DNA of 64,000 nt from an uncultured Rikenellaceae bacterium (GCA_964514725.1 CAZEUL010000005.1:129479-193478); one strand, 5' to 3'. Shown: positions 4,347 to 61,364, counted from the first letter of the stretch. Numbers and translations: made by a program. The notes: a model not told the origin generated them from the letters alone.

Positions 4347-4350
4347 AACC

Positions 4351-11059: not shown

Positions 11060-11815
11060 ATGATGAAAATGAAAAAAATCATTGAAAAACTAAGTTTATT
11101 AGCACTTCTAAGTGTTATCTGTTCATTTTCAGGAGAATCACTCATGGAGAGCAAACCTGTATATTATGTCGGCAGACTGAAGAAATCAATGAAGATAGAC
11201 GCCAACTGGGAAAAGCCTCAATGGAAAGTTGTCCAATCCGTTGATATCAGGAATTTTATGGGCACTGTTCCGGCTTTTAAACCTGAAGCTGAGGTAAAGA
11301 TGGCATATGATAACGATAATATCTATGTTATCTTCCATGTTCATGATCGTTATGTAAGGTGTATAACCAGCCAGATTAACGGACCTGTTTGGCAGGACAG
11401 CGCTGTTGAATTTTTCTTTGCCCCTGACCCTGAATTACCACTTCAGTATTTCAATCTTGAAACAAACTGCGGCGGAACCCCTCTTATGCATTACAACCTT
11501 ATTCCAAGGAAAGAGTCGAAGAGTTTGTCAGAGGATGATATAAAGAGGATAGAAATAGCTTCAACCCTTCCAAAGGTAATTGATCCGGAAATGACGGGCC
11601 CCGTCATCTGGACACTTGAATACAGGATACCGCTGGATATTCTTGAGAAATACTCTGCTGTATCACGTCCGAAAAAAGGTGTTGAATGGAAGGCTAACTT
11701 TTACAAGATAGCGGAAAACAGCTCAAATCCACATTATATTACCTGGGCAGTGATTGAAAATGAAAAACCTGATTTTCATAAACCTGAGTTTTTCGGACGT
11801 CTGATATTTGAATGA
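11060..11815 (+). CDS. Stand-alone CBM9-like (carbohydrate-binding family 9-like) secreted protein
   Basis: It has a signal peptide. The pattern KIDANWEKPQW...MAYDNDNIYVIFHVHD...WQDSAVEFFFAPD is typical of CBM9-like modules. Confidence 0.6.
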   Translation: MMKMKKIIEKLSLLALLSVICSFSGESLMESKPVYYVGRLKKSMKIDANWEKPQWKVVQSVDIRNFMGTVPAFKPEAEVKMAYDNDNIYVIFHVHDRYVRCITSQINGPVWQDSAVEFFFAPDPELPLQYFNLETNCGGTPLMHYNLIPRKESKSLSEDDIKRIEIASTLPKVIDPEMTGPVIWTLEYRIPLDILEKYSAVSRPKKGVEWKANFYKIAENSSNPHYITWAVIENEKPDFHKPEFFGRLIFE

Positions 11816-44584: not shown

Positions 44585-45334
44585 ATGAAAATTCTGGTTT
44601 GCATAAGTAATGTGCCTGATACAACGACTAAAATAAAATTCACTGGAGACAATAAAAGCCTTGATACCACTGGCATTCAATGGGTGATCAATCCATGGGA
44701 TGAACTGTCTCTTACGCGGGCCCTGGAACTTAAAGATGATCTTACTACCGGAGTAAAATCAGTTACAGTCGGTCATGTAGGATTAATCGGTTCGGAACCA
44801 ACAATAAGGAAGGCGCTCGCAATAGGTGCCGATGATGCATTCAGGGTCAATGCAGAACCTGTTGATGCTTATTTTGTGGCGGGCCAGATTGCAGAGGTAG
44901 TAAAGAAGGAGCAGTTCGATATAATTATGTGCGGTATTGAATCGAGTGATTTCAATGGTTCTGTTGTCGGCGGGATGATCTCTGAATTTCTCGGCGTCCC
45001 CTCTATTTCTTCAGTTTCGGCAATAAAAATTGAAAACGGTAAACCTGTTATTACAAGGGAAATTGACGGAGGGAAAGAAACAGTTCTCACTGAGGTTCCC
45101 TTTGTTGCAGTTGTTCAGAAAGGTATTGCAAAAGAACCCAGAATTGCCGCAATGAGAGGAATTATGGCTGCAAGAACAAAGCCCATAAGGATCTACGAAC
45201 CTGCAGCTTTTGAAATGCTTACCGAAGTCACTGGTTTTGAAAAACCAAAACAGCGCGCCGCCTGCAAATTCGTTGATCCAGAAAATCCCGCTTCTCTTAT
45301 TGATCTTCTACAGAATGAAGCAAAAGTAATTTAA
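44585..45334 (+). CDS. etfB: Electron transfer flavoprotein beta subunit
   Basis: The N-terminus is MKILVCISNVPDTTTKIKF. The length is ~250 aa and the gene lies directly upstream of etfA. Confidence 0.9.
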   Translation: MKILVCISNVPDTTTKIKFTGDNKSLDTTGIQWVINPWDELSLTRALELKDDLTTGVKSVTVGHVGLIGSEPTIRKALAIGADDAFRVNAEPVDAYFVAGQIAEVVKKEQFDIIMCGIESSDFNGSVVGGMISEFLGVPSISSVSAIKIENGKPVITREIDGGKETVLTEVPFVAVVQKGIAKEPRIAAMRGIMAARTKPIRIYEPAAFEMLTEVTGFEKPKQRAACKFVDPENPASLIDLLQNEAKVI

Positions 45335-45361
45335 AGTCAGAAACGAAATTTTTAATTGAAT

Positions 45362-46330
45362 ATGTCAGTTTTAGTTTATACAGAAAATTGGGATGGTAAA
45401 TTCAAGAAACTTTCATTTGAACTTGTCTCCTATGCAGCTAAAGTTGCAGAAATGCTTAAAACTAATGTTACATCTGTAACAATAGGGAAAGCTGATGCTG
45501 AAGAATTAAAAAAACTTTCTGAGTATGGAGCTGACAAGATACTTAATGTCACGGATTCAACCCTATTATCCCTCGATAATCAGGTCTATGCAAAGTTAAT
45601 TTCAGAAATTGCGAAAAATGAGAATTCGGAAGTTATTATATTCTCAAATAACAATAGCGGAAAAGCTATTGCGCCGCGTGTTTCAGTCAGACTCAAAGCC
45701 GGTCTTGCCTCGGGAGTAAGCAAATTGCCAATAAGCATTGATCCGTTTGTTGTATATAAAAGGGCATTCTCGGGCAATGCTTTTGCGTATATGAAAATTA
45801 ATTCGGCAATAAAGATTATTACCCTTGCCCAGAATTCCTACGAATTGATAAGGAAACCGACAGGCGCTTCCCCGGAAATAATTGTAGCAGAGATTGACCT
45901 TTCAACTATAAAGACAAAGATTTCAGAGGTCCAGAAACAAACGGGGAAAATTCTTCTGACAGATGCCGAGATAGTGGTTTCAGGAGGAAGAGGAATGAAA
46001 TCGCCGGATAACTGGGGTCCAATTGTTGAACTTGCTTCTTTGCTGGGAGGTGCCACTGCCTGCTCAAGACCTGTTTCAGATGAAGGATGGAGACCTCATG
46101 AAGAACATACCGGCCAGACCGGTAAAATAATTTCACCTAATCTTTATATTGCAGTTGGCATTTCTGGCGCAACACAGCATCTTGCCGGAATTAGTTCTTC
46201 CAAATATATTGTTGCTATTAATACTGATAAGGATGCACCTATATTTGAAGCTGCCCAATATGGTATCGTCGGCGATGCCCTGAAAGTGCTTCCAAAACTG
46301 GTTGAAGCAGTCAAAGGTATTAAGAAATGA
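45362..46330 (+). CDS. etfA: Electron transfer flavoprotein alpha subunit
   Basis: The start is ATG 45362 (MSVLVY). The C-terminal FAD-binding region is present (VVSGGRGM...PNLYIAVGISGATQHLAG). Confidence 0.9.
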   Translation: MSVLVYTENWDGKFKKLSFELVSYAAKVAEMLKTNVTSVTIGKADAEELKKLSEYGADKILNVTDSTLLSLDNQVYAKLISEIAKNENSEVIIFSNNNSGKAIAPRVSVRLKAGLASGVSKLPISIDPFVVYKRAFSGNAFAYMKINSAIKIITLAQNSYELIRKPTGASPEIIVAEIDLSTIKTKISEVQKQTGKILLTDAEIVVSGGRGMKSPDNWGPIVELASLLGGATACSRPVSDEGWRPHEEHTGQTGKIISPNLYIAVGISGATQHLAGISSSKYIVAINTDKDAPIFEAAQYGIVGDALKVLPKLVEAVKGIKK

Positions 46331-46562
46331 ATGATTAATTTCTCATTTTCCTTTCTATTGATGAGAACAAAATTCACTTATTTGATTTCAAGGGTAAAAA
46401 GTTTTAATCATGAAAAACAATCATGAAAAAAGATCTCAGTGTCCTTAATGAAAATTCTTTACAACTTTTGCGGTTAAATGATATAATTCTTTTTTTACCT
46501 CAGTTTAAGCTTTATTTAAAGATTGACTTAACTTCTACTGCAAAACAGACAATATCATACAA

Positions 46563-48665
46563 ATGATCAGACAAACAATATTTGCCATTGCCCTTTTAAT
46601 AACCCTGGGACTCTTTTTTTACACAATAAGACGTCTTATCAGGTTCTTCGGTTTTACCAGGCCTGCTTTTACTGTAAAGGATTATGGGAAACGATTTAAT
46701 ATTATGATGAAAGTGGCTTTGGGCCAGACAAAGATTTTCCGGAAACCTGTATTGGGCTTTTTTCATGCTTTGGTATTCTGGGGCTTTTGCGTAATACTTT
46801 TCGGCAGTATTGAAATGGTTATTGATGGCCTGGCAGGCACAAATCGGGCATTGAAATTTCTGGGGCCGGTTTATGATTTTTTAATGGCAACAGGTGACAT
46901 ATTCGCATTACTGGTTGCAATATCCATAATTGTTTTTCTCATCCGCCGGCTTTTTTTTCATATAAAGAGATTTGAAGGACCTGAGATGAAAAAAAAATCA
47001 CATCTCGATGCTAATGTCGCTCTTACCCTTATTCTTCTGCTGATGATCTCCCTTCTCACAATGAATACAGGGTATCTGGGCTACAACTTTTCATCAGGCG
47101 GTGAGGTTTACGGATCATTTCCTGTAAGTATTCTGCTGATGGATCTTTTTGACGGGTTTTCAAGGGAAGATTTTAGTTTAATGCACGAGATTTCATGGTG
47201 GACCCACATACTTCTCATTTTCTTTTTTGCCAACTATCTGCCTTACTCCAAGCATTTTCATGTTTTCATGTCTGTTCCTAATGTTTTTTTGTCACGGCTT
47301 GAGCCTCTGGGCAAACTTACAAATATGGACAACATAACCAGGGAAGTGAAACTGATGTTGAATCCCGATACAACTTTTTCGGCTGTATCGTCTGATTCTC
47401 CAGCAGAAAGATTTGGAATAAAGGATGCTGAAGATGCGACCTGGAAAAATTATTTTGATTCATTATCATGCACTGAGTGTGGAAGATGTACATCTGTTTG
47501 TCCGGCCAACCTTACAGGTAAAAAATTATCGCCGCGAAAAATAATGATGGACCTTCGGGCAAGAATGAAAGAAAAAGGTCCGGGAATGATAGCAAAAGGA
47601 AAGGATTTTAATGATAATCGCTCTCTTCTACGCAGCTATATTTCCGAAGAAGAATTATGGGCATGTACAACCTGCAATGCCTGCTCAAAGGAGTGTCCCA
47701 TCAACATCAACCAGCCGTCCTTAATTGTGGATATGCGGCGCTATTTGGTACTTGAGGAGGCATCTGCACCGGGAGAGCTTAAAAGCATGTTCAGCTATAT
47801 TGAAAACAACGGGGCTCCTTGGCAGTATTCTCCTGAAGACAGACTTAACTGGACCAGAGATCTTAACTTCAAAATCCCAATACTTTCTGAAATGGCCTCC
47901 AGAGGGGAAAAACCAGAATATCTATTCTGGGTAGGATGTGCCGGTGCTTATGATGACAGATATAAGAAGGTAGTCAGATCCTTTGCAAGTATTTTGAATC
48001 ATATTGGAATAAACTATGCTGTCCTGGGAAATGAGGAAACATGTACAGGAGATCCGGCAAGAAGAGCCGGAAATGAACTTCTTTACCAGATGCAGGCTTT
48101 TCAGGTAATAGATATCTTTAACAGATATGGTGTTAGAAAAATCATAACCACCTGCCCACATTGCTTTAATATTTTCAAAAATGAATACCCTGATCTTGGA
48201 GGCAATTTTGAGATTATCAATTATTTACAATTTCTCGATAATAAACATAAAGAAGGGGTATTGGATTTCTCCGTAGAAGCTTTGAAAGACGTAAAGATTA
48301 CCTATCATGATCCCTGTTATCTTGGAAGGGCAAATGACATTTATTCAGAACCCCGGACTCTTTTAAAAGCTGTTTCCGGAAAATATACAGAAATGAAAAG
48401 GCATAAAAGCTTTGCATTATGCTGCGGTGCAGGGGGATCTCAGATGTTCAAAGAAGCTGAAAAAGGAACCAGGGAGATTTTTATTGAAAGAACTGAAGAA
48501 GCCCTGGCAACAGAAGCCAAAATAATTGTAACAGCATGCCCTTTCTGTATGACAATGCTTACCGACGGACTTAAATACAAAAACAAAGAGGAAGAAATTA
48601 AAAATCTCGACATTGCCGAATTAATAGCATTATCACTTGAGAACCGGGAAAAAACAATCTCATAA
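46563..48665 (+). CDS. Membrane-anchored (Fe-S)-binding oxidoreductase with two CCG domains (HdrD/DsrK/GlpC-like; EtfD-like)
   Basis: The N-terminus has ~6 TM helices. There are two ferredoxin-type clusters (CTECGRCTSVCP, CTTCNACSKECP) and CCG-type cysteine motifs (CPHCFN, CCGAGG, ACPFC). Confidence 0.75.
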   Translation: MIRQTIFAIALLITLGLFFYTIRRLIRFFGFTRPAFTVKDYGKRFNIMMKVALGQTKIFRKPVLGFFHALVFWGFCVILFGSIEMVIDGLAGTNRALKFLGPVYDFLMATGDIFALLVAISIIVFLIRRLFFHIKRFEGPEMKKKSHLDANVALTLILLLMISLLTMNTGYLGYNFSSGGEVYGSFPVSILLMDLFDGFSREDFSLMHEISWWTHILLIFFFANYLPYSKHFHVFMSVPNVFLSRLEPLGKLTNMDNITREVKLMLNPDTTFSAVSSDSPAERFGIKDAEDATWKNYFDSLSCTECGRCTSVCPANLTGKKLSPRKIMMDLRARMKEKGPGMIAKGKDFNDNRSLLRSYISEEELWACTTCNACSKECPININQPSLIVDMRRYLVLEEASAPGELKSMFSYIENNGAPWQYSPEDRLNWTRDLNFKIPILSEMASRGEKPEYLFWVGCAGAYDDRYKKVVRSFASILNHIGINYAVLGNEETCTGDPARRAGNELLYQMQAFQVIDIFNRYGVRKIITTCPHCFNIFKNEYPDLGGNFEIINYLQFLDNKHKEGVLDFSVEALKDVKITYHDPCYLGRANDIYSEPRTLLKAVSGKYTEMKRHKSFALCCGAGGSQMFKEAEKGTREIFIERTEEALATEAKIIVTACPFCMTMLTDGLKYKNKEEEIKNLDIAELIALSLENREKTIS

Positions 48666-48675
48666 AAAATTAACT

Positions 48676-50454
48676 ATGGAAATCAGAAAAATTTTGAAAA
48701 GCGGAGAATTTCTTATAAGGGAAGTTGACTGCAAAGATGTATTCATACCGGAAGAATTCAGCGAAGAACAAAATATGATTGCCCAGACATGTAAGGATTT
48801 TCTTGAATCAGAGGTATATCCGAATTTGCAGGCAGTTGAAAAAGGCGACAGGGCCCTTATGAAGAGCATGTTAAAAAAATCGGGTGAACTTGGGCTCATG
48901 GGTATTTCAATTCCGGAAGAGTACGGTGGATTTGGACAGTCATTTGTCACCCAGATGCTTGTCGCCGAGACCACAGGAGCCGGATATTCATTCTCCGTCG
49001 CATATATGGCCCATTGCGGGATCGGAACACTTCCTATCATGTATTACGGGAACGAGGATCAACGACAAAGATATGTTACAAAACTTGCAACAGGCGAACT
49101 TCTGGGAGCTTATTGTCTTACCGAACCCGGCGCAGGAAGCGATGCTAATTCCGGAAAAACCTCTGCTAAACTCTCTTTAGATGGAAAATACTATATAATC
49201 AATGGCCAGAAAATGTGGATAACCAATGCCGGATTTGCTGATACCCTTGTCGTCTTTGCAAAAATTGATAATGACCGGGTATTGAGCGCTTTTATCGTTG
49301 AAACAGGCTATCCTGGAGTTGTAATTGGTCCTGATGAACATAAAATGGGAATAAAAGGATCATCAACTGCCCAGATTTATTTTAACGATGTAAAGGTACC
49401 TGTAGAAAACCTGCTGGGTAAAAGAGGCGAAGGATTCAGAATTGCACTCAGCATCCTTCATATGGGACGACTTAAACTTGGGGCCAATGTACTGGGTGCA
49501 GCAAAAAAAGCAATTACTGATTCAGTTAAATACGCGAACGAAAGAAAACAGTTTGGAGTCTTAATTTCAACATTCGGAGCAATAAAATATAAACTTGCAC
49601 AACAGGTCATAAGGCTTTTTGCATCAGAGTCGGCAGTATACAGAGTAAGTAAGGATATTGATGATCTTATGGACAGACTCAAATCTGAATGCGGTGATAA
49701 AGGCAGAGCAACTATAGAAGCCATAAGCCATTATGCCGTCGAAGCTGCGCTTTTGAAAGTTATTGGCTCGGAAATGCTCGATTATGTCGCGGATGAGGCC
49801 GTTCAGATCCATGGCGGAATGGGATATTCTTCTGAAATGGATGTGGAAAGAGGTTATCGTGATTCACGTATCAACAGAATTTTTGAAGGTACAAACGAAA
49901 TAAACCGGCTTCTGGTCTCAGATACTGTAATGAAAAGAGCAATGAAAGGTGACTTTGACCTTTTCGGTGAAGCTGAGAAACTTTTCGGAATCCTTGACAA
50001 TATTGAAGATGCCGGAAATAAAAATGAGAGTTATTTCCAGGAAAAATACAGATATATTAAAAACTTCAAGAAAATCATTCTGCTCTGTATGCATGCAGCG
50101 GTTAAACAATTCGATAAGAATCTGGTCAATGAACAGGAGGTCATGAATAATATTGCTGAAATGATTATGGAAACCTATCTGTCAGAATCACTTGCATTAC
50201 GAATTGAAAAGATTGAAATGATTAAAGGTTTTGTAACTGAATACAGAGATATACTTGACGTTAACATATATGACACTTCTGAAATAATCAGAAAATCAGC
50301 CCTCGATGCTGTTTATTCCACAGACTTTGAAAATAATACCGAAAAAATGGTAAGAGCAATTGAAATGCTTTCAAAAATCCGAGGAGTTAATGTTAAAAAT
50401 GCCAGAAGACGTATTGCTGATAAACTTATTGCAGATAACCATTATAAATTCTGA
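48676..50454 (+). CDS. Acyl-CoA dehydrogenase, long (VLCAD/ACAD9-like) form with an extra C-terminal domain
   Basis: The likely start is ATG 48676 (MEIRKIL). Motifs GAYCLTEPGAGSDA and YRDSRINRIFEGTNEINR are present, followed by ~180 extra C-terminal residues. Confidence 0.85.
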   Translation: MEIRKILKSGEFLIREVDCKDVFIPEEFSEEQNMIAQTCKDFLESEVYPNLQAVEKGDRALMKSMLKKSGELGLMGISIPEEYGGFGQSFVTQMLVAETTGAGYSFSVAYMAHCGIGTLPIMYYGNEDQRQRYVTKLATGELLGAYCLTEPGAGSDANSGKTSAKLSLDGKYYIINGQKMWITNAGFADTLVVFAKIDNDRVLSAFIVETGYPGVVIGPDEHKMGIKGSSTAQIYFNDVKVPVENLLGKRGEGFRIALSILHMGRLKLGANVLGAAKKAITDSVKYANERKQFGVLISTFGAIKYKLAQQVIRLFASESAVYRVSKDIDDLMDRLKSECGDKGRATIEAISHYAVEAALLKVIGSEMLDYVADEAVQIHGGMGYSSEMDVERGYRDSRINRIFEGTNEINRLLVSDTVMKRAMKGDFDLFGEAEKLFGILDNIEDAGNKNESYFQEKYRYIKNFKKIILLCMHAAVKQFDKNLVNEQEVMNNIAEMIMETYLSESLALRIEKIEMIKGFVTEYRDILDVNIYDTSEIIRKSALDAVYSTDFENNTEKMVRAIEMLSKIRGVNVKNARRRIADKLIADNHYKF

Positions 50455-50587: not shown

Positions 50588-50601
50588 ATGATATATGTCA
50601 A
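50588..50601. promoter_or_regulatory. Crp/Fnr-type box (imperfect) upstream of the cytochrome operon
   Basis: ATGATATATGTCAA matches TTGAT-N4-ATCAA at 8 of 10 specified positions and lies 109 nt upstream of ATG 50710. It is embedded in a ~51-nt module paralogous to 57452-57502. Confidence 0.5.
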
Positions 50602-50709: not shown

Positions 50710-51087
50710 ATGAAAATAATAGCTAACAAATCACACCTTTTCTTGGTGACAATGATTATGCTGTTTGCTGCATTAGTGTTAGGATCATGCGAGAAATATA
50801 CTTATCAGGTGGAAGTTGTTGATCCCGGAGTCCCTGTCCTTTTTCAGACTCAGATTCAACCTATTTTTAATAATAACTGTATTGCATGTCATAAAGGTAC
50901 AAGAAATCCTGATTTAAGAGATGGGAATTCATATACCTCACTTACTACCGGCGGCTATGTAAATCTTCCGGCAGAATCAAGCAAACTTTACAGGCAGGTT
51001 ATTTCAGCCAGCCATGCCCCGTTTACACTTGATTCGGAGAAGCAGTTGATCCTAATGTGGATAAGTCAGGGGGCCAAGAATAATTAA
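50710..51087 (+). CDS. Monohaem c-type cytochrome lipoprotein (PSCyt1-like haem domain)
   Basis: It has a lipobox (LVLGSC) and a single CXXCH in the context IQPIFNNNCIACHKG. Confidence 0.65.
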   Translation: MKIIANKSHLFLVTMIMLFAALVLGSCEKYTYQVEVVDPGVPVLFQTQIQPIFNNNCIACHKGTRNPDLRDGNSYTSLTTGGYVNLPAESSKLYRQVISASHAPFTLDSEKQLILMWISQGAKNN

Positions 51088-51118: not shown

Positions 51119-51982
51119 ATGAAAAAAACTTTGTTGTTTTTGTTTATATCCGCCCTAATGGTTTCATTGACAGCCCAGGAAGGGGATCAAACCAAAGAAA
51201 AATCTAAACCGGTCAGATTCACCTTTGGAACAGGGATACTTATTGATAATCAGACTGTAGAAACAACCTTCAAGGGAAGCCTTGAATTACAGATCCATCA
51301 CCGGTTCAGTCTCATTGAAAACTATCATAATCTATTTGGAATCTATGGAGCCGCAAATACACGACTTGGTTTGAATTATGGTGTAACTGACAGACTTATG
51401 ATAGGCGTCGGAACCACTAAGGATTATAAACTCCAGGATATCCAGTGGAAGTATCAGATACTGAGGCAGACAGAGGATAACAGCATTCCTTTATCACTTT
51501 CATATTATGGGAATTTCGTTATTGATCTCAGGAAAAAGGAAGCATTCGGACCGGTAGACAGATACAGAGATATTCACAGATTATCTTATTTTACCCAGCT
51601 TATTGCTGCCAGGAAATTCAATGATATCTTATCACTCCAGCTGGCACCGTCAGTTATTTATTTTAATGCTGTGCCGCAATATACAAATGACTCAAAATAT
51701 AAGAACCTTAATTTCGGCCTGTCTGCAGGTGCCAGGGCAAATGTTTCCGGGTCACACTCAATTATATTGGAATATGATCAACTGCTTACCAAACAGGACC
51801 TTGAAGAACAGCCAAAGCCAAACCTGTCCGTCGGATGGGAATTGGGAACCGCTACTCATACCTTCCAGCTGTTTGTTGCAAACTATTCCCAGGTTATTTA
51901 TCAGCGCAACCTGGTATTTAATACAAACGATTTCACGAATGGTGATTATCTGATTGGCTTTAACATAACAGTCAGGTTCTAA
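51119..51982 (+). CDS. Outer-membrane beta-barrel protein (DUF5777-like)
   Basis: It has a signal peptide (MVSLTAQ) and amphipathic beta-strand patterning throughout. The C-terminus ends in an aromatic residue (NITVRF), as in OM barrels. The early HHRF motif is as I recall for DUF5777. Confidence 0.6.
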   Translation: MKKTLLFLFISALMVSLTAQEGDQTKEKSKPVRFTFGTGILIDNQTVETTFKGSLELQIHHRFSLIENYHNLFGIYGAANTRLGLNYGVTDRLMIGVGTTKDYKLQDIQWKYQILRQTEDNSIPLSLSYYGNFVIDLRKKEAFGPVDRYRDIHRLSYFTQLIAARKFNDILSLQLAPSVIYFNAVPQYTNDSKYKNLNFGLSAGARANVSGSHSIILEYDQLLTKQDLEEQPKPNLSVGWELGTATHTFQLFVANYSQVIYQRNLVFNTNDFTNGDYLIGFNITVRF

Positions 51983-51989
51983 GTTCAAT

Positions 51990-53000
51990 ATGCAAAAAGT
52001 AATTAAACCTGGTGCAGTCTGGGCATTTATTCTGATTCTAATTTCACAATCGGTAAATGGAGTATTACAGAAAGATCCAAAACAAAATGGATCGCAGCCT
52101 GAAGTAACTGATACTCTCAAATACATTTCACCATTCTTTGAAGATAATGAGCGCTGTTTGAAGTGCCATGGGCAGAGGAGATACGAATACACCAATGAGG
52201 TCCTTGGGCGTCAGGTAAAATCTTTGATGTTTTCTGAAAGGATTATCGACAGGAACAAATTTTACCAGTCGAACCACAAAAGTTTCAGTTGTACAGATTG
52301 TCATTCTAAGGGCTATCTTACCTTCCCACATCCTGGTGAATTAAGGATGGAGCAAAAATTCAATTGTATGGATTGTCATGGCGGCGATGAAAACTTTGCT
52401 CAGTACCATTTTGAAGAAATTGAATCCGAATACCAGAAAAGTGTCCATTACAAGCTTGAGGAAGAAGGTTTTACATGCTGGAAATGTCACGGCCCGCATG
52501 ACTACAGAATAAGTATCCGAAATACTTCAAATCTTAAGGAAACCATACTTTATGATAATAATATCTGTCTGAACTGTCATTCAAACTACAATCACTTTAT
52601 GCTTCTGACAGAAAGAGAAGAGATGAATATTCTGAAGAAGCACGAATGGCTGCCTAACCAGGATGCACATTTTAAAAGCGTCAGGTGTATTGAATGCCAT
52701 GCCCAAACTAACGATACATTGCTTGTAGCACATTATATTAAACCAAAATCAGAAGCTGTAAAGAAATGCAATGAATGCCACTCCCGGAATTCAATTCTGA
52801 TGTCATCCTTGTATAAATTTCAATCTAAAGAACAAAGAAAAGATGGCTTCCTTAACGGGATTATCCTTAATGAGTCTTATGTTATAGGTGCAAACAGAAA
52901 TGAATATCTTAATCTGTTAAGCATTCTAATTTTCATATTTACTTTGGTTATTATCGGAGTTCATGTTTTTTTCAGAATTATTAAAGCAAAAAAGAACTGA
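51990..53000 (+). CDS. Heptahaem c-type cytochrome with a C-terminal membrane anchor
   Basis: It has a signal peptide and seven CXXCH motifs (CLKCH, CTDCH, CMDCH, CWKCH, CLNCH, CIECH, CNECH). A C-terminal TM helix (LLSILIFIFTLVIIGVHVFF) is present. Confidence 0.8.
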   Translation: MQKVIKPGAVWAFILILISQSVNGVLQKDPKQNGSQPEVTDTLKYISPFFEDNERCLKCHGQRRYEYTNEVLGRQVKSLMFSERIIDRNKFYQSNHKSFSCTDCHSKGYLTFPHPGELRMEQKFNCMDCHGGDENFAQYHFEEIESEYQKSVHYKLEEEGFTCWKCHGPHDYRISIRNTSNLKETILYDNNICLNCHSNYNHFMLLTEREEMNILKKHEWLPNQDAHFKSVRCIECHAQTNDTLLVAHYIKPKSEAVKKCNECHSRNSILMSSLYKFQSKEQRKDGFLNGIILNESYVIGANRNEYLNLLSILIFIFTLVIIGVHVFFRIIKAKKN

Positions 53001-53632
53001 TGGTTCATAAATTATACCTGTATCCAAAATGGGTTAGATTATGGCATATTGTTAATGCCATTCTTTTCATTATACTTATTGTTACCGGCCTGAGCATGCA
53101 ATACACCGACATTCAGAATGAAAATTTTTTCGTGGTCGGATTTGCCAGAGCTGTCAAGTGGCATAATTTTGCAGCAATATTATTGACATTCAATTATGTA
53201 TTTTTTGTTACCGGAAACATTATTACTAAAAACGGCAGGCATTACAGGATCTCTAAACAAAACTTCTGGACAGACCTTTGGTTACAGCTTAAATACTATT
53301 CCAAAGGTATGTTTAAAGGAGAAAAACACCCATTTCCGGTAACCGAGATGCGAAAATTCAATCCACTCCAGAAATTTACATATATTCTGGCAATGTATCT
53401 GGCAATGCCTTTATTAATAATTTCAGGTTTGGGTTTACTGTTTCCCGAAATTACCATTAAAAGATTTTTGGGGATGAGCGGCCTGATCCTGACCGATGTG
53501 CTTCATATTACAATGGGATTTTTATTATCAATATTCATGGTGATTCATATATATACGTGTACCCTTGGATCAAAACCCTCTTCTCTGTTTAAAGGAATTT
53601 TGACCGGTTATCATGAATCAGAAGAACATTAA
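53000..53632 (+). CDS. Membrane b-type cytochrome (PhsC/FdnI/HydC-like, cytochrome b561 family)
   Basis: The start overlaps the upstream stop as TGATG. The N-terminal WVRLWHIVNAILF signature is present, with four TM helices carrying His residues (WH, KWHN, VLHIT, MVIHIY). Confidence 0.7.
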   Translation: MVHKLYLYPKWVRLWHIVNAILFIILIVTGLSMQYTDIQNENFFVVGFARAVKWHNFAAILLTFNYVFFVTGNIITKNGRHYRISKQNFWTDLWLQLKYYSKGMFKGEKHPFPVTEMRKFNPLQKFTYILAMYLAMPLLIISGLGLLFPEITIKRFLGMSGLILTDVLHITMGFLLSIFMVIHIYTCTLGSKPSSLFKGILTGYHESEEH

Positions 53633-53697
53633 TCTTTTGACATCTCATAAAATTGCACGATTATTGTATCAAATAACCAAAACTTAAAAACATAATC

Positions 53698-54111
53698 ATG
53701 AAAACTATTAAGAAAACTTTGATTTATTCAGTAATGTTAATTGCCGTCATTTCATTTTTTTGTTTTACCGTAACTGCTCAACAACCCAAACCCTGGGATG
53801 TTCCTGCTGAATATAAAGACATGAAAAATCCTGTTGCAAAGGGCGATGAAAGTAACAAAGCAGGTTTGGCCCTCTATACTAAATATTGTGCATCATGCCA
53901 TGGCAAGACCGGTTTGGGTGATGGGGTAAAAGCAAGGATGCTTAAAGATTTCCCCGGGGATTTTTCAAAGGATTATTACCAAAACCAGACTGACGGAGAA
54001 CATTTTTATAAAACCAAATTTGGCAGGAATGATATGCCAAAATATGAAGGTAAGTTGAGTGACGAAAATATATGGAATATTGTAAACTATATGAGGACAT
54101 TTAAAAAATAG
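53698..54111 (+). CDS. Class I monohaem c-type cytochrome, periplasmic
   Basis: It has a signal peptide, CASCHG, and a distal Met candidate in GRNDMPKY. Confidence 0.75.
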   Translation: MKTIKKTLIYSVMLIAVISFFCFTVTAQQPKPWDVPAEYKDMKNPVAKGDESNKAGLALYTKYCASCHGKTGLGDGVKARMLKDFPGDFSKDYYQNQTDGEHFYKTKFGRNDMPKYEGKLSDENIWNIVNYMRTFKK

Positions 54112-54184
54112 ATATCCGTTTTAATAACTGGCTTTGGATTTCTTAAAGCCTGAACAGGATTTTTTAGGATCTTAAATCATTTGT

Positions 54185-54223
54185 GGGAATGAATGCCATT
54201 GGATTCATTCCCGTTTTTGTTTT
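54185..54223 (+). terminator. Rho-independent terminator ending the 50710-54111 operon
   Basis: A perfect 10-bp stem GGGAATGAAT / ATTCATTCCC with an 8-nt loop is followed by GTTTTTGTTTT. Confidence 0.8.
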
Positions 54224-54384: not shown

Positions 54385-55884
54385 ATGGAATTTAGATCTT
54401 TGGGAAGGAACTGGATAACCATTATTGGTACGTTGATCGCAGCAGTTAATCTGGTACTGATAATAGCTTTGTTCATTATATCAACACTGTTTGATAAAAG
54501 TTCCACCTACCTTGGTTTATTCATTTATATAATCCTTCCCGGTTTCATGCTGCTTGGATTAATAATGATTCCTGTAGGAATATTGATCTCCAGAAAAAAG
54601 GTAATATTATCTTCTCCTGAAGGTAAGAAGAGACTTCCTAATATTGATCTGAATAATCCTGCCCATAAAAAAGCTTTCATTGTTTTTTCAGTGGCAACAG
54701 TTATTATTCTTTTTCTTTCAACCTATGGAAGTTTTGAAGCTTATCATCTGACGGAATCGGTTGAATTCTGCGGAACTCTTTGCCACAAGGTTATGGAACC
54801 TGAATATACTGCGTATCAAAATTCTCCTCATGCCAATGTAGCGTGTGTTGACTGCCATGTTGGTTCCGGGGCCTCGTGGTATGTCAAATCCAAATTGTCA
54901 GGTTTGTACCAGGTGTACGCCACCATTACCAAAACCTATAAGGCACCTATTGAAACACCACTGCATGACCTGCGTCCCGCCAGGGAAACCTGCGAACGAT
55001 GCCACTGGCCTCAGAAATTTTACTCAAGAAAGATCTATACCGGCAAATACTTCCTGGCCGATTCGCTGAATTCTGAATGGGATATTATACTCCAGATGAA
55101 AACGGGTCCTGAATATGAAAATCTGGGTTTTACAGAAGGGATACACTGGCATATTAATCCTGATGTTAAAATTGAATATAAATCAGAAAATGACAAAAGG
55201 GAGATAATAAATTATGTAAAATACACTGATAAAGGAACTGGTGAGGAAATAGTTTACAAAAATTCTAATCTTGAAATATCTGACAGTGCTCTGGCAGCTG
55301 CTTCTGCCAGAACAATGGATTGCATAGATTGCCATAACAGGCCATCTCATAATTATAGTTCACCTCCGGTATATTTCGACCGGATTATGCTGACAGGTGG
55401 TGTATCTAAGGAGATCCCGTTCATTAAAAAAACATCTATGGGAATTCTGGCTGACACTTTCACTGATAAGGACACAGCAATGATGCAGATAAGAGATGGA
55501 ATCCTTAATTTCTATAAGTCAGATTTTGCAAACTTCTATTCATATAATAATGATAAAATTGAAAAATCAATTATTGCCGTTCAAAAAGCATTTTCGCAGA
55601 ATACTTTTCCTGCAATGGGGGTTAATTATAGCGTTTATCCGGATCATATAGGGCATCTCGAATCTGAGGGTTGTTTCAGGTGCCATAATGATACCTTTGT
55701 ATCTGAAACAGGGCGGAAAATCACTCGTGACTGCAACATCTGTCATACAATTGTGGGACAAGGCAGGCCGGGTTCAATGCAATTTTCCAATATCAGGGAA
55801 TCACTTGAATTTATGCACCCTGTTGATATAGGAACAGCCTGGAAAGAAGCCAACTGTTCCGATTGCCACAAGTTTCTTTACTAA
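54385..55884 (+). CDS. Inner-membrane NapC/NirT-family multihaem cytochrome (3 TM helices, 7 haem motifs; ImcH-like architecture)
   Basis: It has three N-terminal TM helices. The NapC/NirT signature is FCGTLCHKVMEPEYTAYQNSPHANVACVDCH. There are six CXXCH motifs (CVDCH, CERCH, CIDCH, CFRCH, CNICH, CSDCH) plus one CX3CH (CGTLCH, nt 54769-54786). Confidence 0.75.
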   Translation: MEFRSLGRNWITIIGTLIAAVNLVLIIALFIISTLFDKSSTYLGLFIYIILPGFMLLGLIMIPVGILISRKKVILSSPEGKKRLPNIDLNNPAHKKAFIVFSVATVIILFLSTYGSFEAYHLTESVEFCGTLCHKVMEPEYTAYQNSPHANVACVDCHVGSGASWYVKSKLSGLYQVYATITKTYKAPIETPLHDLRPARETCERCHWPQKFYSRKIYTGKYFLADSLNSEWDIILQMKTGPEYENLGFTEGIHWHINPDVKIEYKSENDKREIINYVKYTDKGTGEEIVYKNSNLEISDSALAAASARTMDCIDCHNRPSHNYSSPPVYFDRIMLTGGVSKEIPFIKKTSMGILADTFTDKDTAMMQIRDGILNFYKSDFANFYSYNNDKIEKSIIAVQKAFSQNTFPAMGVNYSVYPDHIGHLESEGCFRCHNDTFVSETGRKITRDCNICHTIVGQGRPGSMQFSNIRESLEFMHPVDIGTAWKEANCSDCHKFLY

Positions 55885-56112: not shown

Positions 56113-57339
56113 CTATATGGCAGCTAAGGTGTTTTCCAGTAGTTTTTTGGCATACTTGTAGTTATGCACGCCCTTACTCTTATCTCTCAATATAAGCTGG
56201 AAATTAATCATTGCTCCAAATTGTGCATTTGTAAGTTGGGGCATTGCAGGTAAGGTATTGTTATAAGTTTTCTGATCATTTGTCCATCCTGTAGTCGATG
56301 GTGATTTATATTTACCACCGGGGTTTGATCCCGGATCATAAATATCAAAATATCCGGTATAACCACCTGTTTCAGCATCCTTGTTCATAATGCTTGGTGT
56401 TGCAATTAAATCAAGCTTGGCTCCCAATTCGTTGAGCTTTTCTGTTATATCGTTAGCAACTCCTGTAAAAGTAGGATTTGTTTCACTCATCGATGAATGA
56501 CATCCCGTCATATTACAACCATTAAAATTACCCGCAGAAATAAATGAATGTCCTCCCGTAAATCCTGAAGGAGTTGCCATATGGCAATCCACACAGGAAG
56601 CTCCTGCCGTGTGCGGTGAATTTGAATAACCAGTTCCGAATTCAATGCCTCCGATTCCAGCAAGCATTGCACCATGCGACCCATAATGGACGCCGGTCCT
56701 GTATGAGATCGAAGATAATGTATAAGTTGCAGTAGGTTCGGATACGAGTTTTGAGTAGTCAATCAGATTTCCTGATGCTGCAGTAATCGGCCGAGGTTGA
56801 TGACATTTTGCACATAAATTTCCTGTATTCTTGGCAAGATTAATGGTCTTGGATCCTCCCCACATAGTCATCGGAACAGCCGCAGTCGTTGTAAGTGGAA
56901 GAAACTCCGTTCCTGCATAATTTGTATGCAGTGAACTATGGCATGTAAAACAGCTGATTTCTCCGGGGAATGCCAGAACTGAAGCACTTGCCACATAATT
57001 GTTAATATACTTTGTAGGATCTGATGGATTAACCACAAAGGTTGCAGGGGTACTCTTCTTTACAACATCCAGGAAACCCTGGTGTGAATGACAGGGAGCA
57101 CAGTTATTCCTTGTTCCTTCCTCAAAAGCCTCACCAAGATAATGTAAGGAATGCTTATATTCATTTGCTTTGGCATCTACCGTTGAACTGTTATGGCATA
57201 GTTTGCAAGTCTCATTGGCATCTTTACCGTCCTTGCCATCGTTCCCATCAGCTCCGGCCGGCCCCATAGGACCTTCGCAGGCTGAAAAAAGGATTGAAGC
57301 GGCAAATAAAATACTGAATGATTTCAGAAGGTTTTTCAT
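56113..57339 (-). CDS. Multihaem c-type cytochrome lipoprotein with an N-terminal collagen-like tether
   Basis: The likely start is ATG 57339 (MKNLLKSF), and the lipobox is LFSAC. Six consecutive G-X-Y triplets (GPMGPAGADGNDGKDGKD, nt 57221-57274) follow the lipid-anchor Cys. There are five CXXCH motifs (CKLCH, CAPCH, CFTCH, CAKCH, CVDCH) plus CX4CH (CNMTGCH, nt 56497-56517). Confidence 0.75.
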   Translation of the reverse strand: MKNLLKSFSILFAASILFSACEGPMGPAGADGNDGKDGKDANETCKLCHNSSTVDAKANEYKHSLHYLGEAFEEGTRNNCAPCHSHQGFLDVVKKSTPATFVVNPSDPTKYINNYVASASVLAFPGEISCFTCHSSLHTNYAGTEFLPLTTTAAVPMTMWGGSKTINLAKNTGNLCAKCHQPRPITAASGNLIDYSKLVSEPTATYTLSSISYRTGVHYGSHGAMLAGIGGIEFGTGYSNSPHTAGASCVDCHMATPSGFTGGHSFISAGNFNGCNMTGCHSSMSETNPTFTGVANDITEKLNELGAKLDLIATPSIMNKDAETGGYTGYFDIYDPGSNPGGKYKSPSTTGWTNDQKTYNNTLPAMPQLTNAQFGAMINFQLILRDKSKGVHNYKYAKKLLENTLAAI

Positions 57340-57474
57340 AAAATGGATATTAGGTTTTTTCTTTACGCAATGTAACAATAACAAAATTTTAATTTATCAA
57401 CCGAAGCGGTGTTATTTGCAATATTTTTAATTGATAAATATTTATGTTATAATTGACAAATATTAATAAAATAG

Positions 57475-57488
57475 TTGATATATATCAA
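57475..57488. promoter_or_regulatory. Perfect Crp/Fnr-type palindrome TTGATATATATCAA in a divergent promoter
   Basis: It is an exact TTGAT-N4-ATCAA. It lies 78 nt upstream of the Crp/Fnr gene ATG (57566) and 136 nt upstream of the divergent cytochrome ATG (57339). Confidence 0.65.
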
Positions 57489-57565: not shown

Positions 57566-58261
57566 ATGTCAGAAAAGGAATCTTTAGAGACTGGTAAAAC
57601 AAATATTCCAAAGTGGAAAAACTTTCAGCACCTGTCAAAAACTGAAATGCAGCTGGTAAAAGATAATATTTTCGAAGCCTGGTTCAAAGCAGGGGAGATC
57701 ATTTTGAAGCAAGGATCACCTTCATCAAGTGTTCTGTTTCTTAATTCCGGAATTGCCAAAAGTTTTATTGAAGGGGAAAGAGGTAAAAACTTCATAATGG
57801 AGATTATTCAGCCTGGGACTCTCATGATGGGACCGGGTGCTTATGTAAACTCAAGGAATACGATCTCTGTAGCGGCAATAACTCCTGTTCATGCATCCTT
57901 CCTGGATTTTGGTATCTTCAGGCAGTTGGTTAAAACCAATAGTGCCTTTGCTGAAAGCCTTTTAGTTGATCTTTGTTCAAAATCACTTCAGTCTCATTTA
58001 AAAATAGTTAACCTTGCTCAGAAGAAAATGCCTGGACGTATTGCTGAAGCGCTTCTATATTTTGCAGATGAAGTTTATAATTCAGACGAATTTGAACTGT
58101 ATCTTACAAGGCTGGAACTGGGTGAAATGACAAATATGGCCAAAGAAAGTGTGGTAAGAATTCTTAAGGAAATGGATGAAGCCGGAGTTATAAGCGTGAA
58201 ATCTTCATTTATCAAAATTATTGATAAGGATAAATTACGTATCATATCCGAAAAAGGCTGA
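57566..58261 (+). CDS. Crp/Fnr family transcriptional regulator
   Basis: It has a cNMP-binding-like N-terminal domain and a C-terminal HTH whose recognition helix KESVVRILKEM is close to CRP RETVGRILKML. It has only one Cys, so it lacks an FNR-type Fe-S cluster. Confidence 0.85.
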   Translation: MSEKESLETGKTNIPKWKNFQHLSKTEMQLVKDNIFEAWFKAGEIILKQGSPSSSVLFLNSGIAKSFIEGERGKNFIMEIIQPGTLMMGPGAYVNSRNTISVAAITPVHASFLDFGIFRQLVKTNSAFAESLLVDLCSKSLQSHLKIVNLAQKKMPGRIAEALLYFADEVYNSDEFELYLTRLELGEMTNMAKESVVRILKEMDEAGVISVKSSFIKIIDKDKLRIISEKG

Positions 58262-58295
58262 AAAAACTGAAGCTGTTTATTCCCAAGTAAAATTG

Positions 58296-61200
58296 ATGAT
58301 GAAAATATTTAAATTCTTATTCTCTCCCGTTTTGATGGGAGTTCTTTTAATAATTTTTGCAGTTTCAATGGCTGCAGCAACTTTCATTGAAAACGATTTC
58401 GGTTCCCCCGCTGCATACAAATCAGTATATGATACAAGATGGTTTGAGTTGATATTGTTGCTGCTTGCTGTTAATCTTATCGGTCAGATGATTACCTTCA
58501 AACTGTTCAGAAGCTCAAAACTTACAGTGTCACTTTTTCATCTGTCATTCGTGGTGATGATTATCGGAGCAGCCATTACAAGGTATTTCGGATGGGAGGG
58601 TTCAATCCATATAAGAGAAGGTGAGGAAAAGGATATCTGTTATTCATCTGACAGGTATCTGGCATTCTCACTTAAAGATGAAGCAGGTAATATAATAAGC
58701 CAGAATCAGGAAAAATTTATCGTGGGGGCCGGACATTACAGGGAAAAAATGGTGATAAATGGTAAATGGCATGAACTCATACTTTCAAAAATAATTACAA
58801 ACGCTGTAGAGGTTGTGAACGATTCACGTAACGGAGAGGCTATAGTTTCTATGATTGCAGGTTATAATGAAACTAAGGAATCCATACATCTTAAAAAGGG
58901 GGATACAACCATTATGGATGGTATTTCAATTGGTTTTTACCCTGAAACAGAAACCGACCTTAAGATAACCTCCGACTCCGTTGCATTTTATATTCAGGGA
59001 AAGATTCCTTTCACCCTTATGAATATGATGACGCAGGAAAAAACTGCGGTTGATAACGGAAAGGTGGCCGAACTGAAAGAGATGCAGATAATAACGGCAG
59101 GAAATATAAGGCTTGTCACTCAGAAGCTTACAAGGAGCGGCACCCTGAATCCGGTTTCGGCTGACAAACAGATTCAGGCGACCGGGAAAAATGTTCTGGT
59201 TTTTGATTTGTTATCGGAAGGGAAGAGTGTGGCAACAGTTAATCTCTGGGATACCGGTAAGGAAATCAGATCTTCAGGAACAGCTGAAATAGCAGGTAAG
59301 TCTCTGGAGATTACTTATGGTCCGCTTGAGAAGAAACTTAATTTTTCACTTCGGCTTAACGATTTTATCCTTGAAAGGTATCCCGGTTCCAATAGTCCGT
59401 CAGGATATAAAAGTGATGTTGTTCTTTATGACAGGACGGCAGGAGTGGAAAAACCTTTTATCATCTTTATGAACAACATCTTAAAATACAAAGGATTCAG
59501 ATTTTATCAGTCATCTTATGATCCTGATGAAAAAGGTACCGTTTTATCAGTAAATCATGATCCGGTGGGTATGAATGTAACTTATACCGGCTATTCTTTA
59601 TTATTTATTTTTATAATTCTTTCACTATTAAACAATAAATCCGTTTTTAAAAGTATAAATGCTGGTTACTGGAGTTCTTCTTTAAGAAAAAAAGTACCTT
59701 TCATACTGTTTTTTATTGTCTTTAACGGAGTTGTAAATTTAAATGCCCAAAAGCTTATACCCGATAAAAGATCAGCAGAAGAATTTGGTCAAATACTTGT
59801 TCAGGATCAAAAAGGAAGGACAAAACCTTTGTTTACACTAAGTAACGATATCCTCCGAAAGGTGGCAAGGGAAAATTCATTGGACGGACTGACTCCCATG
59901 CAGGTTTACCTGGGCGTTTACCTCGATTTTGAAAAGTGGAAAGATGTACCTCTGATAAAAATTTCCAACAGAGAGCTGCAGAGAAGGATTGGGATAAGTG
60001 GTAATATGGCAGCATTTTCAGATATAGTTGATATCAGCAGAGGAGGAATCTATAAACTTTCAGATGATGTCAACAGAGTGTATTCATTACCTCCGGGTGA
60101 ACGTAATAAGTATGACAAGGAAATAATTAAGGCTGACGAACGGATTAACATTGTTTACATGATTTATACCGGTAGGTTCCTTAAGATTTTTCCGAGGAAA
60201 GACGGGCAGCACGACTGGGAATTTCCTGAAAATGCCCTTAAAACTGCTGTTAACAAAGAGGATTCTCTATACCTTGAGAACGTCATCCCGATGTTTGCAG
60301 ATGCAATCAGGTCAAAAAACCGGTCGGTGGCGAGTACGATCTCACAATCCATTATTGATTACCAGAAGAAATTTGCACGTTACGATCTTCCTCCTGAATC
60401 AAAATCGAGGGCTGAAATAATTTATTACAAACTAATGATCTTTGAAAGGCTTTTCCCTTTTTATGCGGGAATTGGATTAGTGATGCTTATCGGACTTTTG
60501 GTTATGGTTATAAGGGGAATTAAAACCAAATCCTTTTTTGTTAAAGTTTTGGGATGGCTCCTGTTTGCCGGATTTTTACTTCATACACTTGGCCTGGGAT
60601 TACGATGGTATATATCGGGTCATTCTCCCATGAGTAATGGCTATGAATCAATGATCTTTATTTCATGGGTCACGCTTCTTGCAGGATTTATCTTTAGCAG
60701 GAAATCGGCATTTGCACTTTCAGCTACAGCTGTGCTTGCTTCAATGACACTTATGGTAGCCCATCTGAGCTTTATGGATCCTGAAATAACCAACCTTGTT
60801 CCGGTGCTGAAATCATACTGGCTTACTCTTCATGTTTCAGTGATTACCGGCAGCTATGGATTTCTTGGCCTGGGTGCGATCCTCGGCTTAATTTCAATGA
60901 TACTTATTTCCCTCTCCAGTATTAAAAACAGGGAAAGAATTTCTGTTACAATCGACGAGCTGGTTGTTATTAATTACAGAACACTAACTCTCGGGTTGTA
61001 TTTACTAACAATAGGGACCTTCCTTGGAGCTGTTTGGGCTAATGAATCGTGGGGAAGATATTGGGGCTGGGATCCTAAGGAGACTTGGTCGCTGATTACA
61101 ATTATCGTCTATACTTTTATAACGCATTCAAAGAATATCCCGGGTCTCAAAGATATCTTTTCGTTCAACCTGTTTTCTCTCTTTGGCTTCTCTTCAGTCC

Positions 61201-61364
61201 TGATGACTTATTTTGGTGTAAACTATTATTTATCGGGCTTGCATTCATACGCGGGGGGAGATTCTGTTCCGATACCCGGATTTGTTTATTTTACTGTTTT
61301 GATTCTTGTGTCTTTGTCGTTTTTAGCTTATTCCAGATACAGGAAATGGGAAAAACAGACATAG
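58296..61364 (+). CDS. ccsBA: Fused system II cytochrome c biogenesis protein CcsBA (ResB-like + CcsA haem lyase)
   Basis: The likely start is ATG 58296 (MMKIFKF), whereas the track ORF starts earlier and overlaps the regulator gene. The N-terminal part is ResB-like with a large periplasmic domain. The C-terminal part is polytopic and carries the CcsA tryptophan-rich WWD motif (WGRYWGWDPKETWS). Confidence 0.85.
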   Translation: MMKIFKFLFSPVLMGVLLIIFAVSMAAATFIENDFGSPAAYKSVYDTRWFELILLLLAVNLIGQMITFKLFRSSKLTVSLFHLSFVVMIIGAAITRYFGWEGSIHIREGEEKDICYSSDRYLAFSLKDEAGNIISQNQEKFIVGAGHYREKMVINGKWHELILSKIITNAVEVVNDSRNGEAIVSMIAGYNETKESIHLKKGDTTIMDGISIGFYPETETDLKITSDSVAFYIQGKIPFTLMNMMTQEKTAVDNGKVAELKEMQIITAGNIRLVTQKLTRSGTLNPVSADKQIQATGKNVLVFDLLSEGKSVATVNLWDTGKEIRSSGTAEIAGKSLEITYGPLEKKLNFSLRLNDFILERYPGSNSPSGYKSDVVLYDRTAGVEKPFIIFMNNILKYKGFRFYQSSYDPDEKGTVLSVNHDPVGMNVTYTGYSLLFIFIILSLLNNKSVFKSINAGYWSSSLRKKVPFILFFIVFNGVVNLNAQKLIPDKRSAEEFGQILVQDQKGRTKPLFTLSNDILRKVARENSLDGLTPMQVYLGVYLDFEKWKDVPLIKISNRELQRRIGISGNMAAFSDIVDISRGGIYKLSDDVNRVYSLPPGERNKYDKEIIKADERINIVYMIYTGRFLKIFPRKDGQHDWEFPENALKTAVNKEDSLYLENVIPMFADAIRSKNRSVASTISQSIIDYQKKFARYDLPPESKSRAEIIYYKLMIFERLFPFYAGIGLVMLIGLLVMVIRGIKTKSFFVKVLGWLLFAGFLLHTLGLGLRWYISGHSPMSNGYESMIFISWVTLLAGFIFSRKSAFALSATAVLASMTLMVAHLSFMDPEITNLVPVLKSYWLTLHVSVITGSYGFLGLGAILGLISMILISLSSIKNRERISVTIDELVVINYRTLTLGLYLLTIGTFLGAVWANESWGRYWGWDPKETWSLITIIVYTFITHSKNIPGLKDIFSFNLFSLFGFSSVLMTYFGVNYYLSGLHSYAGGDSVPIPGFVYFTVLILVSLSFLAYSRYRKWEKQT

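Follow-up and report, generated by a model that had tools for sequence, protein, structure and literature searches.

This locus raises the question of whether a c-type cytochrome whose first haem-binding motif is one residue longer than the canonical CXXCH is the oddity of a single gene or a regular member of a known family. The gene lies at 54385-55884 (+) in a stretch of 64,000 nucleotides (nt), called the window here, from an uncultured Rikenellaceae bacterium (GCA_964514725.1 CAZEUL010000005.1:129479-193478), and its open reading frame (ORF) translates into a 499-residue protein. An earlier note, made from the window's sequence, had described the product as an inner-membrane NapC/NirT-type cytochrome resembling Geobacter ImcH and had flagged its first haem site, CX3CH, as non-canonical. 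We find that the gene, called imcH below, very probably encodes an orthologue of Geobacter ImcH, that is, a heptahaem quinol-oxidising cytochrome of the NapC/NirT/NrfH superfamily, in a Bacteroidales-type genome. It adds a new and uncharacterised protein to a known family, whose known hallmark it shows.

Translation, hydropathy, an AlphaFold2 model and Pfam agree on the architecture that the earlier note had proposed: three N-terminal transmembrane helices, a NapC/NirT region, CX3CH at 54769-54786 and six CXXCH motifs. Kyte-Doolittle hydropathy gave three hydrophobic segments (residues ~10-35, 42-68 and 96-115), and the AlphaFold2 model, for which 43 sequences were aligned, shows three long helices at 10-36, 41-76 and 92-123 and reaches a mean pLDDT of 85.9. 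By the positive-inside rule, the N-terminus and the K/R-rich loop 69-96 are predicted to be cytoplasmic and the haem domain periplasmic. The Pfam family Cytochrom_NNT (NapC/NirT, PF03264) matched residues 95-187 (E 5.9e-12, 46.1 bits against a cutoff of 24.1), a match that covers model positions 5-101 of 174. About 12 residues past the third helix, the codons TGC GGA ACT CTT TGC CAC spell the first haem site, C129-G-T-L-C133-H134, and six CXXCH motifs follow, starting at residues 154, 203, 313, 430, 450 and 491. The features of the gene and its product are these:

54385..55884 (+): imcH-like gene; inner-membrane heptahaem c-type cytochrome, putative menaquinol dehydrogenase
54412..54492 (+): transmembrane helix 1, residues ~10-36, by hydropathy and AlphaFold2; N-terminus predicted cytoplasmic
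54508..54588 (+): transmembrane helix 2, hydrophobic core residues ~42-68, by hydropathy and AlphaFold2
54670..54735 (+): transmembrane helix 3, residues ~96-117; equivalent to the single NrfH membrane anchor and leading into haem site 1
54667..54945 (+): NapC/NirT region, residues 95-187, Pfam PF03264; NrfH-like by sequence and fold
54769..54786 (+): haem site 1, CX3CH, C129-H134; one residue longer than the aligned NrfH CXXCH
54793..54795 (+): Met137 of the signature F-C-G-x-x-C-H-x-V-M-x-P; aligns with the Met of NrfH CXXCHXM
54844..54858 (+): haem site 2, CVDCH (154-158); invariant
54892..54894 (+): Lys170, quinol-site lysine equivalent to ImcH K173 and NrfH K82, by alignment; role from bioRxiv 10.1101/2023.05.03.539133
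54910..54912 (+): Gln176, at the position of NrfH Asp89 and of Geobacter ImcH Q179, for which a role as distal haem-1 ligand is proposed, by alignment; role from bioRxiv 10.1101/2023.05.03.539133
54991..55005 (+): haem site 3, CERCH (203-207); invariant
55321..55335 (+): haem site 4, CIDCH (313-317); invariant
55672..55686 (+): haem site 5, CFRCH (430-434); invariant
55732..55746 (+): haem site 6, CNICH (450-454); invariant
55855..55869 (+): haem site 7, CSDCH (491-495); invariant

Comparison with ImcH itself required a Geobacter reference. The published N-terminus of Geobacter sulfurreducens ImcH had no match among the 150 family representatives described below, and we located an orthologue in genome contigs by a degenerate DNA pattern (MTLRKT followed, 361-385 nt later, by F-C-X3-C-H-X2-M-X-P). 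The pattern matched two records, a Geobacter sp. metagenome-assembled genome (MAG) and a Deltaproteobacteria MAG, whose ORFs are identical over a 455-residue overlap; the Deltaproteobacteria ORF runs off the contig end. The Geobacter MAG ORF is complete at 504 residues and has C132-G-E-L-C-H137 and Q179, the residue numbers published for ImcH. Our ImcH reference is this MAG orthologue with the published MTLRKT, H137 and Q179, and not the PCA strain record itself. BLASTP aligned the window protein with it over 489 residues at 38% identity (E 6e-133, 11 gap positions), with all seven haem motifs in register, FCGTLCHKVMEPE aligned to FCGELCHTVMTPE, and K170 paired with K173 and Q176 with Q179. 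Each protein is the other's sole strong match in the respective genome (E 7e-120 and 4.6e-120), and imcH is single-copy in the source genome, which is 4.2 Mb in size and 97% complete. The 38% identity lies, for this alignment, inside the 31.5-49% published between Geobacter ImcHs and those of other phyla (PMC6295460).

The resemblance extends to every sequence-level feature by which the family is described. ImcH homologues have been reported from 12 phyla, Bacteroidetes and Ignavibacteriae among them (Zhong & Shi 2018, Front Microbiol, PMC6295460), and in that survey all of them carried an atypical CX3CH beside the transmembrane domain plus 5-9 CXXCH motifs, and all but two had three transmembrane helices. 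The window protein shares with Geobacter ImcH (GSU3259 in G. sulfurreducens; Levar et al. 2014, Zhong & Shi 2018, Pimenta et al. 2023) full-length homology at almost the same size (499 against 504 residues for the Geobacter orthologue), three N-terminal transmembrane helices, the NapC/NirT region, CX3CH as first site followed by six CXXCH, a Lys and Gln environment at haem 1, and six conserved distal histidines. Similarity to the ImcH and NapC families, without which the earlier identification would have fallen, is highly significant.

We then asked how the extra residue is distributed. For close homologues, a word-indexed search scored 8000 candidates and returned 7991 homologues, of which we examined the best 120; these share 69-86% identity with the window protein, are mostly 499 residues long and, where named, come from Bacteroidales or Bacteroidetes. 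CX3CH followed by six CXXCH was present in 120/120 (121/121 with the query, at ≥69% identity), and the first motif was CG(T/M/I/A)LCH throughout. For the distant family, we searched 1.84 billion cluster representatives exhaustively with HMMER and obtained 3330 matches at E ≤ 1e-3 and 642 at E ≤ 1e-30. The distant set comprises the best 150 representatives (30-73% identity, 30-49% for the full-length ones), 144 of which cover haem site 1: 139 have CX3CH and five CXXCH, and C129, C133 and H134 are present in 144/144. M137 is kept in 145/147 representatives, P139 is invariant or nearly so, and Lys170 and Gln176 are conserved in 148/151 and 133/149, respectively. In these alignments, the block F128-C-G-x-x-C-H-x-V-M137-x-P139 is the best-conserved part of the protein.

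The five CXXCH representatives (P0142, P0162, P0189, P0209 and P0264; for example FCGS-CH) amount to natural 'deletion mutants' of the extra residue. In a FastTree phylogeny, the nearest neighbours of each are CX3CH sequences. Because they are nested among CX3CH relatives, CX3CH would be ancestral to the family and the shorter spacing a rare, independent secondary loss; the scattered exceptions look like secondary reversions, as judged from the tree. The survey of 144 representatives (139 against 5) thus indicates an extra residue that is ancestral and strongly, though not absolutely, retained.

These counts bear directly on whether C-G-T-L-C-H is a true CXXCH site lengthened by a sequencing or assembly indel or by a recent mutation. 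The five CXXCH representatives do indicate that two-residue spacing is compatible with the fold. However, a 3-nt in-frame artefact is unlikely in itself, the 120 close homologues come from many assemblies, CX3CH prevails among the distant representatives, the Geobacter orthologue reads CGELCH, and the motif is reported family-wide in the literature (PMC4251993, PMC6295460). We rejected an indel or recent mutation, which we regard as vanishingly improbable. The earlier note had asked whether the motif is conserved in orthologues, and it is. What did not stand is the novelty that the note implied: the first haem motif of ImcH was given as CXXXCH by Levar et al. (2014, mBio, Fig. 1B legend, PMC4251993) and again in the later survey (PMC6295460). 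The feature flagged as non-canonical is the established signature of the family, and haem counting has already been done on its type member. On haem-binding motifs our analysis consequently adds little, CX3CH being established for ImcH and its loading already addressed in Geobacter. Two Rhodoferax CymA homologues are also reported to have CX3CH beside a transmembrane helix (PMC6295460).

The structural context of the extra residue comes from NrfH. In the PDB, only NrfH of Desulfovibrio vulgaris passed the default E cutoff of 0.001 by sequence (2j7a_C, E 2.5e-4), and only NrfH gave a confident match by fold (Foldseek probability 1.00, TM-score 0.55 normalised to NrfH, 115 columns, 24% identity). 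It is also the only solved structure of the NapC/NirT family (PDB 2J7A, 2VR0), and its membrane helix and first four haem sites superpose on the window protein. The HMMER alignment pairs FCGTLCHKVMEP with NrfH FC-TSCH-IMNP, which places one additional residue inside the motif of ImcH proteins and one between His and Met. On this alignment and the family survey, CX3CH differs from the CXXCH of NrfH and NapC by the ancestral insertion of one residue, a family hallmark and no anomaly of a single gene. K170 aligned to NrfH Lys82 and Q176 to Asp89, both quinol-site residues, and Met137 to the quinol-site Met of CXXCHXM. The two proteins otherwise differ widely: NrfH has CXXCH-X-M, one transmembrane helix, four haems and an obligate NrfA partner, whereas the window protein has CX3CH-XX-M, three helices, ~290 extra residues and three more haems.

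Family models place the protein outside the neighbouring groups. The best NCBIfam model was NrfH (TIGR03153), at 65.6 bits below its cutoff of 134.2; the NapC/NirT tetrahaem subfamily (TIGR02161; 15.9 bits against 310.6) and TorC (TIGR02162; about 24.6-24.7 bits against about 455-478.2) also scored below their cutoffs. NrfA (PF02335) had no match in the 97%-complete genome, and with the NrfH model under its cutoff we rejected a role as NrfH. CymA of Shewanella, NapC and TorC, the tetra- and pentahaem quinol dehydrogenases, share the superfamily PF03264 with the window protein and would share the role of passing electrons from menaquinol to periplasmic redox partners. Unlike it, they have a single transmembrane helix and a different number of haems, and only the first ~100 model residues match.

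Six histidines outside the haem motifs (H149, H254, H256, H322, H424 and H478) are invariant or nearly so. Since six suffice to make haems 2-7 bis-His, haem 1 would be left with a non-His distal residue, which agrees, as far as the alignment goes, with the proposal of His/Gln ligation for haem 1 of Geobacter ImcH. Met137 corresponds by homology to the Met that serves NrfH haem 1 as proximal ligand, and it could replace His134 as axial ligand in CX3CH proteins. However, NapC/TorC-type proteins, for which His ligation is assumed, widely retain the equivalent Met, and for this reason we rate such a replacement as unlikely.

A site with non-canonical spacing might, alternatively, be vestigial and free of haem, which would make the protein a hexahaem cytochrome that oxidises quinol elsewhere. 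Non-canonical spacing can indeed make a poor substrate for haem lyases, and the source genome has only a System II lyase, CcsBA, whereas the published haem count was obtained in a System I host. That count nevertheless speaks for a loaded site: recombinant Geobacter ImcH contained 6.6 Fe per protein and had a mass fitting seven haems (bioRxiv 10.1101/2023.05.03.539133). An unused site would also be expected to drift, whereas the two cysteines and the histidine are kept in every representative covering the site, within the best-conserved block, and the homologous NrfH site holds the quinol-oxidising haem. We consider a haem-free first site very improbable.

Seven haems, menaquinol oxidation and a requirement for high-potential extracellular acceptors are known only for G. 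sulfurreducens ImcH (PMC4251993; bioRxiv 10.1101/2023.05.03.539133). That protein oxidises menadiol and menaquinol analogues, reduces periplasmic PpcA and releases protons to the periplasm, and it gives a partial high-spin signal assigned to haem 1, for which His/Gln ligation is predicted (bioRxiv 10.1101/2023.05.03.539133). For the window protein, our results cover sequence, motifs, homology, conservation, fold, gene context and co-occurrence, whereas haem loading, menaquinol oxidation, partners and terminal acceptor are inferred from such homologues. Three helices would anchor the protein with its N-terminus in the cytoplasm and its haem domain in the periplasm. Menaquinol would bind and be oxidised at the membrane surface beside haem 1 (C-G-x-x-C-H), near Met137, Lys170 and Gln176. 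Electrons would pass along a chain of seven closely spaced haems, with the six conserved histidines as distal ligands of haems 2-7, and leave to periplasmic cytochromes, and by homology the protons would be released to the periplasm.

The setting of the gene offers further clues to its role. The neighbouring features that matter here are the following:

51119-51982 (+): DUF5777 beta-barrel gene
51990-53000 (+): heptahaem c-type cytochrome gene, C-terminal transmembrane anchor
53000-53632 (+): cytochrome b gene, PhsC/FdnI type, starting at the last base of the heptahaem gene (53000)
53698-54111 (+): monohaem cytochrome c gene
54183..54214 (+): intrinsic-terminator-like hairpin, 12 pairs followed by a T-run; also inverted repeat I2
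56113-57384 (-): lipoprotein multihaem cytochrome gene, 423 residues, convergent to imcH
58221..61364 (+): fused CcsBA (ResB-CcsA) System II haem lyase gene, 1047 residues, by Pfam and NCBIfam

The hairpin lies between the stop of the preceding monohaem cytochrome gene (54111) and the imcH start codon, and the next gene 3' of imcH is convergent. With a terminator upstream and a convergent gene downstream, imcH looks monocistronic: to judge from the sequence, the hairpin would end the upstream cytochrome operon and isolate imcH as a single-gene transcription unit. This bears out the earlier description of imcH as a unit of its own behind a terminator, and it matches G. sulfurreducens, where imcH is monocistronic as well (PMC4251993). 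No TTGAT-N4-ATCAA sequence with up to two mismatches occurs in the 273-nt spacer upstream of imcH, so that the reported lack of a Crp/Fnr box there also holds. Within the window, a perfect TTGATATATATCAA Crp/Fnr box occurs only at 57475-57488 (57431-57466 is also cited for this site), where the divergent promoter region separates the lipoprotein cytochrome gene from a crp/fnr gene; this Crp/Fnr regulator gene lies behind the box, downstream of imcH. A two-mismatch box, ATGATATATGTCAA (50588-50601), precedes the cytochrome operon beginning at 50710.

The set at 51119-54111 (+) looks like a split CbcL-like quinol oxidoreductase accompanied by a small barrel, judging by its gene content. The same cluster occurs together with imcH in a congener (G003) and in G027, which belongs to another family and has the cluster fully co-directional, and the 51119-54111 set is conserved with imcH in another family at locus L018. 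The congener's imcH (L014, G003:C9, 7856-9352) is inverted relative to that of the window; it directly follows the lipoprotein cytochrome gene, on the strand of that gene, and could there be driven by the Fnr-box promoter. A search of the window for flanking inverted repeats that might explain the inversion found nothing convincing. Of the genus, 25 genomes were compared: 16 have both ImcH and the cluster, one has ImcH only, three the cluster only and five neither (Fisher p 0.0055); for all 41 relatives the corresponding numbers are 18, 1, 5 and 17, these tests ignoring phylogeny and genome incompleteness. The co-occurrence pattern points to ImcH as an accessory quinol dehydrogenase that acts together with the cluster. 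Its place beside the cluster's own cytochrome-b-based entry is reminiscent of the ImcH/CbcL duality of Geobacter, and ImcH would probably form a second quinol-oxidising entry beside the heptahaem-c/cytochrome-b module, both feeding the same cluster-encoded periplasmic cytochromes.

Several observations weigh against assigning the gene the full role of Geobacter ImcH. Haem occupancy, quinol specificity and partners would all be carried over from a protein with no more than 38% identity. The host is Bacteroidales-type, unlike Geobacter, and cytochrome-poor: nine ORFs have at least two CXXCH motifs, none exceeds seven haem motifs, and a PpcA-like trihaem protein was not seen among them, so that a Geobacter-style long-range extracellular pathway is not evident. 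In four other congeners, imcH lies far from cytochrome genes, alone beside thrA/thrC-type housekeeping genes. Three congeners carry the cluster without ImcH, which makes the functional link only a statistical one.

Some of these observations lend something to the idea that the protein belongs to the ImcH family by descent without serving high-potential extracellular acceptors, and that it feeds a periplasmic or soluble-acceptor reductase, or works in reverse as a quinone reductase, in the manner of NrfH, NapC and CymA. Multihaem cytochromes are few in the genome, which shows no obvious conduit of the decahaem or porin-cytochrome type, NrfH is the closest NCBIfam model, and the housekeeping-gene settings in the four congeners fit such a role too. 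The absence of NrfA from the genome and of any adjacent reductase gene points the other way, as do the wide margins by which the NrfH and NapC equivalog cutoffs are missed. Moreover, imcH co-occurs, and in three genomes co-localises, with a beta-barrel/heptahaem c/cytochrome b/lipoprotein cytochrome cluster that looks like an envelope-spanning electron route. We judge a purely periplasmic or reverse function to be quite unlikely.

Unlike its Geobacter counterpart, the ImcH orthologue described here stands inside a cytochrome/beta-barrel/cytochrome-b cluster beside the sole CcsBA lyase. A larger reading, possible though on the unlikely side, is that ImcH and the adjacent split CbcL-like pair are two alternative quinol-oxidising entries into a compact trans-envelope route, a minimal extracellular electron transfer pathway. 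The DUF5777 beta-barrel, the monohaem c and the lipoprotein six-haem cytochrome would be members of this route, at least two promoters with Crp/Fnr-type boxes would serve it, and it would be conserved across at least two families of the order in a cytochrome-poor phylum. Our analysis is of modest value in showing that a Bacteroidales genome has an ImcH orthologue that is full-length and intact, beside a conserved cytochrome/beta-barrel cluster and the sole System II lyase, and it supports taking imcH in uncultured Bacteroidales as a marker for electron transfer that is respiratory and possibly extracellular.

Maturation of the protein would rely on the fused CcsBA encoded at 58221-61364, two genes downstream of imcH. 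As the only Cytochrom_C_asm-family gene in the 97%-complete genome, it would be the general lyase, maturing in trans all c-type sites including CX3CH, and we take it to load the first haem of ImcH. On the same ground we rejected a dedicated lyase for CX3CH or CX4CH sites. By implication, CXXCH, CX3CH and CX4CH sites must all be served by one CcsBA. The CX4CH site (CNMTGCH) is in the lipoprotein cytochrome at 56113-57384, next to five CXXCH motifs, and is the second non-canonical haem motif of the cluster.

Elsewhere in the genome, a 196-residue membrane-anchored protein (C6:28526-29116, -) has CASVCH (CX3CH) followed by three CXXCH motifs and is a second candidate CX3CH cytochrome; by BLAST it is unrelated to ImcH. 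Besides the ImcH-like protein, the genome has two other strong NapC/NirT proteins, encoded at C15:77268-78806 (-) (L021) and C28:20776-22308 (+) (L022). Both are fusions of ~510 residues that join a full NapC/NirT tetrahaem domain to a C-terminal domain resembling sulfatase-modifying factor / formylglycine-generating enzyme, and their first site is canonical (CTSCH or CISCH), followed by IH instead of xM. We rejected them as further ImcH paralogues on account of this fusion and the canonical CXXCH first site.

Directly upstream of the cytochrome cluster, at 44585-50454 (+), lie etfB, etfA, a gene for a 700-residue membrane Fe-S/CCG-domain oxidoreductase and a long acyl-CoA dehydrogenase gene, which are likely to form a route from fatty-acid oxidation into the quinone pool. 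The GC content is uniform (0.33-0.41) and gave no compositional sign of recent transfer. Signs of decay appear in some congeners: in G005:C6 (L006), imcH has an in-frame TAG and the lipoprotein cytochrome gene is split in two, and in G024:C22 the heptahaem gene is fragmented by stop codons. Another relative (L020, G022:C37) has two imcH copies, at 3071-4567 and 11484-12980, each 74% identical to the query; they flank an inverted duplication of the etfB-etfA-FeS/CCG genes, which is either a real segmental duplication or a MAG assembly artefact.

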